From a virus (Duplodnaviria; Heunggongvirae; Uroviricota; Caudoviricetes): a stretch of DNA of 4,042 nucleotides. Of the stretch, positions 1 to 3,000 are shown one piece after another. The stretch is taken from the IMG/VR virus record IMGVR_UViG_2671180656_000001; one strand, written 5' to 3'. Made by a program: the position numbers. Numbering within the stretch: position 1 is the first letter of the stretch; each line of letters begins with the position of its first letter.

Positions 1-3000
1 TTTGGAAAGATGGTGAAGAAGGTGCTTATGCGATGGGTTATGAGGATGGGCGTGACAAAACGGTAATTGCAGTAATGAAAGCCATCAGGGCCGCAGGAAT
101 CAAAGAAAAGAATTTCGATTAAGCAAATATCACTTCAATAAATCGCTTTTAAGGCATCACAATCGCTCTGTAGCGAGGTAAACGCGTGCAAGGCATGCCA
201 ATAAGCAGCGAGAATGAAAAATGCGTCAGAATGCGTTTGAGGAGGTTTTAAGAAATGAGTACGATAGCTGAGCTTGTCAGGGCTAATTTTCGTGAAGAGT
301 TGGTGCGTTGGTATCGGTATCGTTCATCGTCCAGTTTGCCGCTTGATGAGTTGTATGAGCATTCACCTGCCGCACGACGCTATCCGCGTGACCGTGTTCT
401 TCGACGGTTGTTCAAACTCAACAATGAGTTTCAGCGCAACAGAATTATCCGGAGTCTGGATTTAAAGTGAAGGAGTGAGCATGAGCGACCTATCATTAAC
501 CCAGCCAAAGCTAAAAGAATGTCCGTTTTGCGGCGGTAATGCTCGTCTGTGGGTTGAGGCCGGAATAAATATTGATGTGTGGGGCTATGCAGAATGTGAC
601 CTCTGTGAAGCCAGGGTGGCATGGGCACCATCAGTTGCTGCGGCTACTGAAAAATGGAACCGGAGAGCAGGAGATGAAGCAAACCTTTCTGCTTCGCAAC
701 GAAGCAATCAGAAATAACGCCATAGACGCCATTCTCTCACTACCCATCGACGACAAGTCACCCCACGAAGTCCACGTTAAAGAACCCAAGCGCAGCAAAG
801 CGCAGAATGACCGTATGTGGCCGATGCTGAACGATGTTTCGCGTCAGGTGCTATGGCATGGTCAACGGCTGGCGCCGGAAGACTGGAAAGACCTGTTCAC
901 TGCCCTGTGGCTTAAGACCAAAAAACTGGAGCAACGAAGTGTGCCTGGTATCGACGGTGGCGTTGTCATGCTTGGCGTGCGTACCAGCAAAATGCGAAAG
1001 GCCAGCATGACTGAGCTTATCGAAATCATGTTCTGGTTCGGCTCAGAGCGCAACGTGCGGTGGAGTGATGACTCCCGGCGAGAGTATGAATGGTCACAAC
1101 GAAAAGGTAGGGCTGCATGACTATCAAATCAAATACGCCAGCACACGACAAGGACTGCTGGCAAACGCCGCTCTGGCTTTTTGATGCGCTGGATATTGAG
1201 TTTGGATTCTGGCTGGATTCAGCTGCGAGCGACAAAAACGCTCTGTGCGCTCACTGGCTAACTGAGGCTGACGACGCGCTAAATTCTGAGTGGATAAGCC
1301 ACGGTGCAATCTGGAATAACCCACCGTACAGCAATATCAGGCCGTGGGTGGAAAAAGCCGCTGAGCAGTGCATACAACAGCGACAGACGGTAGTTATGCT
1401 TGTGCCAGAGGATATGTCAGTCGGATGGTTCAGCAAGGCTCTGGAGAGTGTTGACGAAGTTCGCATCATCACTGATGGACGGATTAATTTTATCGAACCA
1501 TCGACAGGGCTGGAGAAGAAGGGAAACAGCAAAGGCTCCATGCTGCTGATTTGGCGACCGTTCATCAGTCCTCGACGGATGTTTACTACCGTATCCAAAG
1601 CGGCATTGATGGCGATCGGGCTGGGCGTCAGGAGGGCTGCATGAGGCGACAGCGACGAAGTATCACCGACATCATCTGCGAAAACTGCAAATACCTTCCA
1701 ACGAAACGCTCCAGAAATAAACGCAAGCCAATCCCAAAAGAATCTGACGTAAAAACCTTCAATTACACGGCTCACCTGTGGGATATCCGGTGGCTAAGAC
1801 ATCGTGCGAGGAAAACAAGGTGATTGACGTGATGATTTATTCGGGGCTATATTCCTCAAACGCCAGCAAAATCTGGCGTCGGGATTGGCGTCCTGGATAG
1901 AGACCGCGACAGATACACGCCGCGAGCGTGTTTTTTATTGTCGTATGCACGCGCACATCTGAATTATGGTGGGCTGTGTGGGGGCGGAGAGATCCGCGCC
2001 GGTCGGTTTCCCGGTTACGCCAACCCTGCACAGTTCACCACCAGACGATTGGCGTCGTCGGTGGTGAGTTATTAAGAAACCACCAGAGGGCGTCATTATG
2101 ACAACTCAAATTTCTGTTGAAACTCTCTCCCCGATCACCCATAACCAGATTCCTGTTATTACCACCGAACTTTTGGCGCAGCTTTACGGCACTGAGCCGG
2201 TGCGTATTCGCCAGAATCATCATGAGAACAAAGTACGCTTCGTTGAAGGGAAACACTTTTTCAAAGTTGTTGGTAATGACCTTAAAGAATTGCGGGTAGC
2301 TTTAAACTACTCACAAAATTTGCGGGTTACTTTAAGTAACTCACAAAATTTGCAAGTGTTCGAAAAACTGGAAGACTGCTATTTCAGCCAGTGCGAGAAA
2401 AATACTGGCAAACAAGAGAAGAAGCTCAACGGGCTTTCCGCAAAAGAAACAGACAGCCTTGTATGGCTGTGGGATTATGCCAACCGCTCACAGGCATTGT
2501 TCCGTGAGTTGTATCCCGCATTAAAACTGATTCAGTCTGGCTATTCCGGCATATGCCACGACTACGGCTATGAGTTCTCGTATATCATCGGGAGGGCGAG
2601 GGGCGTTTTAATTAATCACACGCGGGATATAGATATTTATGAGCCTGACGGGCCGACGAACCTTCTGGCATGGGAAAGGCTTAAGAACAAAGAGTTGCCG
2701 CCTTCACTGCATCGCTACTGACAATTGACAACTTAACAAACCCAGCTTCGGCTGGGTTTTTTATTGCTGAATTTTCAATGTGAGAGGACATGACAATGAA
2801 TGAGCTGATAAATAGCAATGCCATCAAAATGACAAGCATTGAAATCGCTGAGTTGGTGGGAAGCCAACACGGTAATGTCAGAATATCAATAGAACGTCTG
2901 GCAAAGCGTGGGGTGATTCAACTTCCTTCAATGCAAAAAGTTGAAAATAAACAAACAATTAGCCCTAACAAATTCACAAGCGTGTATATATTCGAAGGCG

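Follow-up and report, generated by a model that had tools for sequence, protein, structure and literature searches.

A candidate P1 immI-type RNA control cassette with IsrK- and C4-family RNAs upstream of the antirepressor gene antA in a lambdoid nin region

We analysed a 274-bp island (1824-2097, plus strand) that separates ninE from the antirepressor gene antA in a 4,042-nt stretch of virus DNA (Caudoviricetes; IMG/VR record IMGVR_UViG_2671180656_000001), which is referred to as the window. A preliminary description, made from the sequence alone, had proposed that the island encodes a small RNA (sRNA) or, alternatively, a terminator of the nin type. Our results indicate that it is probably a self-contained RNA control cassette of the P1 immI type, in which a C4-type antisense RNA would block the translation of antA and decoy sites in an IsrK-family sRNA would relieve this block. 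The island is real, conserved and explained by known families. Since isrK and C4 are both curated in Rfam and C4 modules have long been known, the cassette belongs to a known kind and does not represent a new type of system. C4-type modules are widespread in proteobacterial phages (PMC2864571).

Two RNA genes between ninE and antA

Two RNA genes were identified in the island by an Rfam scan. The first, isrK (RF01394; 1860-1936), was matched over the whole model (positions 1-77 of 77; 74.7 bits, threshold 50; E = 2.5×10−15). The preliminary description had expected a structured transcript of some 70-80 nt, from promoter to terminator, and this full-length, above-threshold match of 77 nt bears the expectation out. 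The second is a gene for a C4-type antisense RNA (RF01695; 1962-2045), matched at model positions 1-87 of 87 with 66.7 bits (threshold 45; E = 6×10−12). We compared the window with 15 diverged homologous loci (69-85% identical) from phages of Escherichia coli, Salmonella, Enterobacter and Yersinia, namely Shiga toxin (Stx) phages of other types, E. coli prophages, Enterobacter phage Tyrion, O157 typing phage 10, a Yersinia phage and the whole of Gifsy-1. In all 15, isrK scored above threshold and was followed 22-27 nt later by C4. Structural conservation was assessed in a 17-sequence alignment, with shuffled sequences and slid registers as controls.

IsrK is made up of hairpin 1 (1860-1879; 7-bp stem, loop CAAAAT), hairpin 2 (1880-1895), a single-stranded linker and an intrinsic terminator (1915-1936), in which the stem ACACGC/GCGTGT with its loop CGCGA (1915-1931) is followed by a T run. 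All three hairpins are present in the minimum-energy fold, and the terminator was recovered by site scan and fold alike. In hairpin 1, which may act as a 5' stabiliser, 96.5% of the alignment cells were paired and six of the seven pairs had changed on both sides. The terminator helix was poorly aligned by MAFFT (54.9% paired) and was hence examined locus by locus; a G+C-rich hairpin with a T run was found at this position in 17 of 17 loci. The terminator would be leaky by analogy with Gifsy-1, in which the homologous promoter and terminator, the short RNA and read-through past the isrK terminator were demonstrated by experiment (Hershko-Shalev et al. 2016, PMC4825925). Hfq binding is part of the isrK family's description in Rfam and of that description only.

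Transcription is predicted to start at A1860, from a promoter at 1824-1853 with a −35 hexamer TTGACG (1824-1829), an 18-nt spacer and a −10 hexamer TATATT (1848-1853) that together agree with the consensus at 10 of 12 positions. Promoter-like and terminator-like sites were no more numerous in the window than in shuffled sequence, and scans for them therefore prove nothing on their own. In the alignment, both hexamers fall in the same columns as those of P1c4, the annotated promoter of P1 (TTGACC...TATAGT), and those of the Gifsy-1 promoter region (TTGACA-18-TATATT), which argues against the earlier suggestion that the promoter match was fortuitous. Deletion of the PisrK region of Gifsy-1 abolishes the transcription of isrK (PMC4825925), and by analogy the promoter would also be active in this phage.

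The mature C4 RNA is predicted to span 1968-2042 (75 nt). These ends were derived by homology to the annotated 77-nt C4 of P1, with which the window shares a conserved G at 1968 and the ACC(A) tail at 2040-2043. A closing stem of 17 bp (1967-1983 with 2024-2040) encloses hairpin 1 of C4 (GCGGA-gaga-TCCGC; 1984-1997) and hairpin 2 (1998-2015). The predicted fold (−44.5 kcal/mol, z = −4.2) was not equalled by any of 200 shuffles. The same dot-bracket architecture was obtained for all 17 homologues; the closing stem was paired in 100% of the cells and contained seven covarying pairs, four of the five pairs of hairpin 1 covaried, and over the three helices 12 pairs had changed on both sides. In Gifsy-1, isrK (34316-34240) and a C4-family RNA (34214-34131) were found on the minus strand, and the C4 match falls exactly where the published analysis places orf45 and the ~80-nt RNA STnc1160, which is processed from the homologous transcript together with an RNA of ~180 nt (PMC4825925). 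Both sizes fit the predicted species, mature C4 and an RNA from the 5' end to the 3' end of C4 (1860-2042, 183 nt).

All five elements that the preliminary description had listed were recovered in place by site scan, folds and alignment. Its sRNA reading was correct for IsrK and incomplete in that it recognised neither the second RNA gene nor the control of an antirepressor. It had counted the GCGGA/TCCGC hairpin and the CACCACC/GGTGGTG inverted repeat as additional hairpins of the same RNA. Instead, the former belongs to C4, and in the latter CACCACC (2036-2042), which serves as the 3' strand in the closing stem of C4, can pair with GGTGGTG (2060-2066) in a hairpin presenting the first target of C4. 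IsrK hairpin 2, the C4 closing stem and C4 hairpin 2 had been overlooked, as had a 7-mer, TTGGCGT, that is repeated at 1885 and 2049 and has its complement at 2017. Further Rfam matches in the window (STnc370, rsmX, istR and a CRISPR repeat) scored far below threshold, lay on the antA terminator or on coding sequence, and were treated as chance.

The statement that the island holds no convincing open reading frame (ORF) stood. ORFs of 33, 45 and 57 amino acids (aa) do occur there, but neither the length nor the peptide of the ORF that starts at a conserved ATG is kept across loci. A protein-coding island, whether through these ORFs or through orf34 of phage VT2-Sakai, was rejected: the conserved-ATG ORF ranges from 8 aa to no stop within 120 nt, and its frames shift. 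In the GenBank and RefSeq records that we examined, no RNA gene is annotated at the island, and several records instead call a hypothetical ORF across it. VT2-Sakai has orf34 across C4 (the region of window 1928-2101), and in other Stx phages coding sequences (CDSs) of 220-277 aa are drawn over isrK and C4 (1223-2056 in locus L009, 1394-2056 in L011 and L012). Protein-coding annotations that run through isrK and C4 are probably ORF over-calls. In the group formed by L009, L011 and L012, the frame from the C4 AUG stays open into a Rha-type gene.

Target sites of C4 and a model for the control of antA

Two segments of C4 have complementary sites both upstream and downstream. Segment a' (ACGCCAA; 2017-2023) is single-stranded between hairpin 2 and the closing stem, and is the exact complement (7 of 7) of site a1 (TTGGCGT; 1885-1891), presented in and around the loop of IsrK hairpin 2, and of site a2 (TTGGCGT; 2049-2055) in the antA leader. 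Site a2 is displayed in the loop of the alternative hairpin at 2036-2066, which forms in the long fold and whose stem was paired in 96.6% of the cells, with two pairs changed on both sides. TTGGCGT or its complement occurs four times in the whole window, and three of these occurrences are a1, a' and a2. The recognition segment b' (CGGTTTC; 2004-2010) forms the loop of C4 hairpin 2. It can form seven pairs, one of them G-U, with b1 (GAGACCG; 1900-1906) in the IsrK linker, and six Watson-Crick pairs with b2 (GAAACC; 2076-2081), a site separated by 4 nt from the downstream Shine-Dalgarno sequence of antA (GAGGG; 2086-2090); a duplex with one bulge can extend over 2075-2085. At most other loci, b2 and the Shine-Dalgarno sequence share bases. 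The free-leader fold also predicted a hairpin pairing a2 with the Shine-Dalgarno region. We rejected it for lack of covariation, because the segment GGGCGTCAT is identical in a locus with a different a2 type.

Both the hairpins and the contacts between the RNAs were supported by compensatory changes. Within the RNAs, 92.5% of the alignment cells were paired and 20 of 45 pairs had changed on both sides over the 17 loci, so that the check on hairpin conservation and covariation suggested in the preliminary description came out positive; none of 500 shuffles reached these values, and slid registers gave 33-45%. The a1:a' contact was paired in 94.1% of the cells, 27 of which had changed on both sides (slid registers: 21-50%), and a':a2 in 98.2%, with 26 such cells. 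Eight a types were distinguished among the 17 loci, including TTGGCG, TTTGCA, TTAGCA, TTGGAA, TTCGAA, TTGGTC and TTGACA (the P1 type). Each is matched in its cognate a', a1 and a2, except that a1 of the CTGCGAA type matches at six of seven positions. The b' loop is almost wholly different between loci, and b1 and b2 change along with it; the b1 site and its position were kept in 17 of 17 loci.

Contiguous-run scores that allowed G-U pairs gave ambiguous non-cognate overlaps among the 17 loci, and were replaced by exact Watson-Crick tests on a wider set. Scanning viral contigs for the conserved C4 core yielded 108 parsed modules with 48 distinct combinations of a' and b'. An exact 7-mer complement of a' was present at a2 in 48 of 48 cognate but in none of 1716 non-cognate comparisons, and at a1 in 42 of 48 as against 1 of 1716. 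At least seven Watson-Crick pairs with b' were formed by 85% of the cognate and 5% of the non-cognate b2 sites; for b1 the values were 60% and 2%, and b1 thus tends to be a weaker copy than b2. The a types number at least 12 and the b types at least 31, and they reassort freely (four a types, for example, were found with one and the same b loop). Over the 48 specificity combinations, three-way covariation holds for the a sites and for the b sites.

One of these contacts coincides with published genetics. The Gifsy-1 pairs G28-C162 and G31-C159 were proven genetically, and mutation of G28 and G31 abolishes trans-activation by IsrK (PMC4825925). In the same numbering, G28, G31, C159 and C162 correspond to window positions 1887, 1890, 2018 and 2021, and the two pairs map exactly onto a1:a' (1887 with 2021; 1890 with 2018). 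Trans-activation by IsrK raised the translation of anrP 139-fold and required both G28 and G31. Double mutants intended as compensatory gave 224 and 327 Miller units, as compared with 4 in the wild type, and repression was not restored (PMC4825925). This failure is expected if a' must also pair with a2, which was left unmutated.

We propose the following sequence of events. From the constitutive-looking sigma-70 promoter, transcripts would start at about 1860, and most would end at the 1915-1936 terminator to give the 77-nt IsrK. Some would read through into C4, which would be cut out of the transcript as a mature species of ~75 nt (~1968-2042). RNase P, which makes the 5' end of C4 in P1, would by analogy process C4 in this phage. 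C4 would be the repressor here, just as C4 of P1 represses ant through a2 and b2: by pairing with a2 and b2 beside the Shine-Dalgarno sequence, a' and b' would keep ribosomes off antA in the prophage. IsrK, we infer, works by titrating C4. Its sites a1 and b1 would be decoy copies that act either in cis, as part of the read-through transcript, or in trans, in the form of the abundant short RNA. With the decoy occupying a' and b', the leader would be freed and antirepressor made, pushing the prophage toward induction.

Several observations weigh against this model. The b contacts of the window are short, with a b2 of 6 nt ending 4 nt before the Shine-Dalgarno sequence and a b1 that includes a G-U pair, and most loci have a stronger b contact. 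In the window sequence alone, a' and b' had no advantage in duplex energy over shuffled probes at three of the four target regions, and only a' with IsrK had a marginal one (3.6% of the shuffles reached its value). Because these single-sequence energies are mostly uninformative, the case rests on covariation. The Rfam family c4-a1b1 (RF03163), which overlaps the 5' half of IsrK, scored 45.9 bits against a threshold of 46.7 in the window; it passed in four of the 15 homologous loci (L001, L003, L013 and Gifsy-1) and in P1. The architecture that defines this motif in the supplement of Weinberg 2010 is found in the window: two hairpins lie upstream of C4, the second with a1, and b1 lies directly 3' of it, both sites being complementary to C4. 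The regulated protein AntA may itself be impaired (see below). A literature search for expression of this region of the phage found none, and the accessible parts of the main text and supplements of Tree et al. 2014, on enterohaemorrhagic E. coli (EHEC), contain no mention of IsrK, NinE or an antirepressor. Two Gifsy-1 results are also difficult to accommodate: constitutive orf45/STnc1160 RNA did not stop the toxicity of IsrK and if anything enhanced it, and the cis a1 mutation G28A raised basal expression, which a pure decoy would not predict (PMC4825925). As neither fits pure titration, the cis-structure model of that paper is a live partial rival.

Applied literally to the window, the Gifsy-1 model would make the region after IsrK the 5' part of a small ORF (here 33 aa, 1966-2067) and not a trans-acting antisense RNA. 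The read-through mRNA would fold into an inactive form, with IsrK sequence pairing with the 3' part of the ORF; short IsrK in trans would open the ribosome-binding site of the ORF, the translation of which would be coupled to that of antA. For Gifsy-1 this model draws on a tagged ORF45 protein, start- and stop-codon mutants that cut activation, native-gel conformers and 30S footprinting, besides the STnc1160 over-expression result (PMC4825925), and the window preserves both the AUG (1966) and the a1:a' helix. The ORF itself is nevertheless poorly preserved. From the conserved AUG it extends for 8, 14, 15, 27, 31, 33, 35, 36 or 45 aa, or has no stop within 120 nt after C4; frames and peptides differ between loci, and the authors themselves note a conserved nucleotide sequence with an unconserved peptide (PMC4825925). 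The window ORF stops 30 nt before the antA start and does not overlap it. By homology to P1, the AUG would be split by processing, with the cut between U1967 and G1968, and the start- and stop-codon mutations also fall in the closing stem of C4. The model does not account for the covariation of further site copies (a2 and b2) with the C4 loops and leaves the failure of the double mutants to restore repression unexplained. We regard its ORF component as weak and its literal application to the window as unlikely.

Genomic setting of the island and the antA gene

The window is a lambdoid nin region in which Pfam searches identified Dam (1117-1644), NinE (1641-1823) and, from 3518 onward, NinG. 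Two antirepressor-type genes lie between NinE and NinG: antA (2098-2721) and an ORF at 2790-3518 with Rha and ANT/KilAC domains. The preliminary description held that every gene boundary other than the island is tight, which was mostly so; the exceptions are a 68-nt gap at 2722-2789 and about 130 nt (roughly 123-254) without an ORF of at least 30 aa. Many Stx1- and Stx2-converting phages, among them Nil2, 1717, 2851 and VT2-Sakai, were 99-100% identical to the window over bases 1780-2140. Hundreds of E. coli genomes, as well as many Stx1 and Stx2 phages, carry the island with at least 99% identity. The query 1780-2140 had matches in 1555 of 5426 complete E. coli genomes, at up to eight places per genome, although it includes the widely shared 3' end of ninE and many of the genome matches cover that end alone.

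In lambda imm21, HK022, HK620 and phages of the P22 type, homology was confined to the ninE end (window 1780-1828), after which ninF or ninX follows. It ends at 1814 or 1828, around the ninE stop codon and the −35 hexamer, which places the left edge of the inserted isrK-C4-antA(-roi) block at the ninE stop. Because the lambda-type phages share only this end, the island and the genes after it are an insertion relative to them and not the lambda terminator region. This bears on the alternative offered in the preliminary description, according to which the island is mainly a nin terminator of the pR operon (similar to lambda tR3/tR4 and requiring N-type antitermination), with the promoter and the other hairpins incidental. 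The hairpin at 1915-1931 with its T run is indeed a good intrinsic terminator in the sense direction of the early-right operon, and the site counts, which do not exceed those of shuffled sequence, would suit such an explanation. But the lambda-type phages do not have the island, for which no lambda nin homology was found; the cassette also occurs outside nin regions (after cro or roi, beside tail-fibre genes and in P1); the promoter keeps its position across loci, equivalent to that of experimentally characterised promoters; and both RNAs match curated families with E values of 6×10−12 or lower. As the main explanation, a nin terminator is thus very improbable. The IsrK terminator would still stop unmodified pR transcripts, and that part of the idea is compatible with the cassette, as a secondary role.

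The genomic context of the module varied among the homologous loci, in which it was found after ninE, after cro or roi, or beside tail-fibre genes. An annotated gene, mostly named antirepressor, starts just downstream in 13 of the 15, and an open ATG is present in one more. In the Yersinia phage (L008), C4 lies inside an annotated hypothetical CDS. When we inspected the genes after ten other modules, eight had ORF6N, Rha, Bro-N or a below-threshold Derepression match. In two viral contigs, isrK-C4-rha units are repeated in tandem every 656 bp, with three units in L042 (9709-11209, minus strand) and two in L092 (4807-5499). The units that were parsed, two per contig, differ in their a'/b' type, like independent circuits in series.

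The antA gene encodes a protein of 207 aa and is annotated as Ant or antA in related records. AntA has an intact P22_AR_C domain (83.5 bits) and a partial ORF6N domain (model positions 3-62 of 86). It is without the conserved ORF6N core RSLILWTERGAARHAKML (RSLILWTERGAARHAKMLETDQAW), about 25 residues that are kept in five homologues including AnrP of Gifsy-1. A 30-bp tandem repeat of 2.1 copies lies at the junction (about 2290-2353), where VT2-Sakai has 111 additional bases and encodes an Ant of 244 aa. The window antA therefore looks like an in-frame deletion allele, and AntA may be impaired because the core segment of ORF6N has been lost.

These features could also mean that the cassette is an inactive relic in this phage, its RNA genes appearing intact while controlling nothing owing to the deletion in antA. 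The missing ORF6N residues, the additional bases of VT2-Sakai and the repeat at the junction agree with such a view. On the other hand, the deletion is in frame and leaves P22_AR_C intact; all RNA elements and the four target sites are intact, in an island that is nearly invariant in hundreds of E. coli genomes and phages. Moreover, IsrK and C4 could act in trans on modules of the same type in co-resident prophages, given the up to eight matching places per genome. We consider a relic highly unlikely, and the RNA circuit looks intact.

Downstream of antA, the gap at 2722-2789 contains a strong intrinsic terminator (2738-2765; 9-bp stem at 2738-2759 and a T run) that probably ends the isrK-C4-antA transcription unit. 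Apart from this terminator, no Rfam family scored above threshold in the gap. An RNA element also tends to follow the antirepressor gene elsewhere: sRNA-Xcc1 (RF02221) does so in two Stx phages and IsrJ in Gifsy-1. The spaces after the antirepressor gene that correspond to the gap are 2321-2404 in L001, 2511-2601 in L004 and 33406-33480 in L015. In Gifsy-1, the IsrJ sRNA downstream of anrP has a Rho-independent terminator (PMC4825925).

Comparison with known systems

The isrK-orf45-anrP locus of Gifsy-1 (PMC4825925) shares with the window the promoter spacing, a 77-nt RNA with three hairpins, an a site of identical type (TTGGCGT with ACGCCAA) and a downstream antirepressor gene of the ORF6N type. 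The two differ in position (after ninE in the window, after the Q-like gene antQ in Gifsy-1), in b specificity (CGGTTTC versus CGGTGAT) and in the ORF from the conserved AUG, which has 33 aa in the window (1966-2067) and stops 30 nt short of antA, whereas in Gifsy-1 it has 45 aa and overlaps anrP. IsrJ was not matched by the Rfam scan of the window, and AnrP is free of the internal deletion seen in AntA. A further contact reported for Gifsy-1 IsrK, C18-G173 (PMC4825925), has no complementary counterpart in the window (1873-1879 versus 2030-2034). It is not supported by covariation, because IsrK hairpin 1 is identical in the two loci while the C4 stem differs (ACAGT in the window, ACGTC in Gifsy-1).

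In P1 and P7, the immI region (c4-icd-ant) has the same order of elements: promoter, hairpin, a1 hairpin, b1, terminator-like hairpin, C4, a2 hairpin and b2 at a ribosome-binding site. The P1 record annotates P1c4, a1, b1, the 77-nt c4 RNA, a2, b2, icd and ant in an order and spacing like those of the window, which thus has the layout of a P1 immI control region. The annotation of that record also states that icd-ant translation is repressed through a2 and b2. C4 of P1 has the same fold, the conserved G with which the RNA is predicted to start and the 3' ACC tail, and the regulated product is likewise an antirepressor. Differences lie in an icd-like ORF, which is interposed in P1, where b2 abuts the Shine-Dalgarno sequence of icd, but absent from the window, where b2 directly precedes antA; and in the specificity (P1: a = TTGACAG, b = GTTAGTG). 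The P1 record also places a C1-controlled operator, Oc4 (formerly Op51), upstream of c4. In the Rfam scan of P1, C4 and c4-a1b1 scored above threshold, while isrK reached 35 bits, below its threshold, in a match that includes the terminator-like hairpin. This hairpin, with a T run, lies between b1 and c4 (48277-48311 of the P1 sequence, L016) and suggests that P1 may also make a short a1/b1 RNA that its record leaves unannotated.

Competition of a1/b1 with a2/b2 was already proposed for P1 (Weinberg 2010, supplement). In the searchable literature we found no statement identifying IsrK as the a1/b1 leader of a C4 module or orf45/STnc1160 as a C4 RNA. The Gifsy-1 paper, in its accessible portion, compares its locus only with CI and seqA of P4 (PMC4825925); a 2025 review, as far as its text was accessible, describes IsrK and c4 separately; and a paper on APSE phages lists matches to both without connecting them.

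A more general proposal follows the same lines, and we put it forward tentatively, giving it a little less than an even chance: the IsrK "sRNAs" would generally be the decoy arm of C4 modules, that is, an a1/b1 leader with a terminator, the orf45 element of Gifsy-1 would be a processed C4, and prophages with modules of the same type would cross-regulate one another. If so, the unit is a three-RNA circuit of decoy, antisense RNA and target, the specificity of which comes from two short address sites that reassort independently. In E. coli with multiple prophages, including Shiga-toxin strains, modules of the same type would cross-regulate their antirepressors and those of different types would be independent, and this would determine the prophages that are induced jointly. 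Prophage induction by antirepressors can proceed without cleavage of the repressor, and the induction of Shiga-toxin phages releases toxin. The cassette is a concrete candidate for a control point in the induction of these phages. It also links two separate literatures, that on IsrK in Salmonella and that on C4 in P1, and suggests a re-reading of the published Gifsy-1 mutant data.

Two further systems resemble the proposed circuit in part. In P4, the CI RNA is processed from a leader and pairs with copies of its target up- and downstream (seqA and seqC), giving the same three-element layout, as described in PMC4825925; the outcome there is premature transcription termination of the replication genes and not a translational block. 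We liken the two by description only, and the Rfam scan of the window gave no match to a P4-family RNA. AgvB and AsxR, which are encoded by EHEC prophages, are target-mimic sponges (PMC12197685), a role like the one suggested here for IsrK. Whereas they target sRNAs of the host, in the cassette upstream of antA the decoy and the antisense RNA would come from one transcription unit and control a gene of the phage itself.

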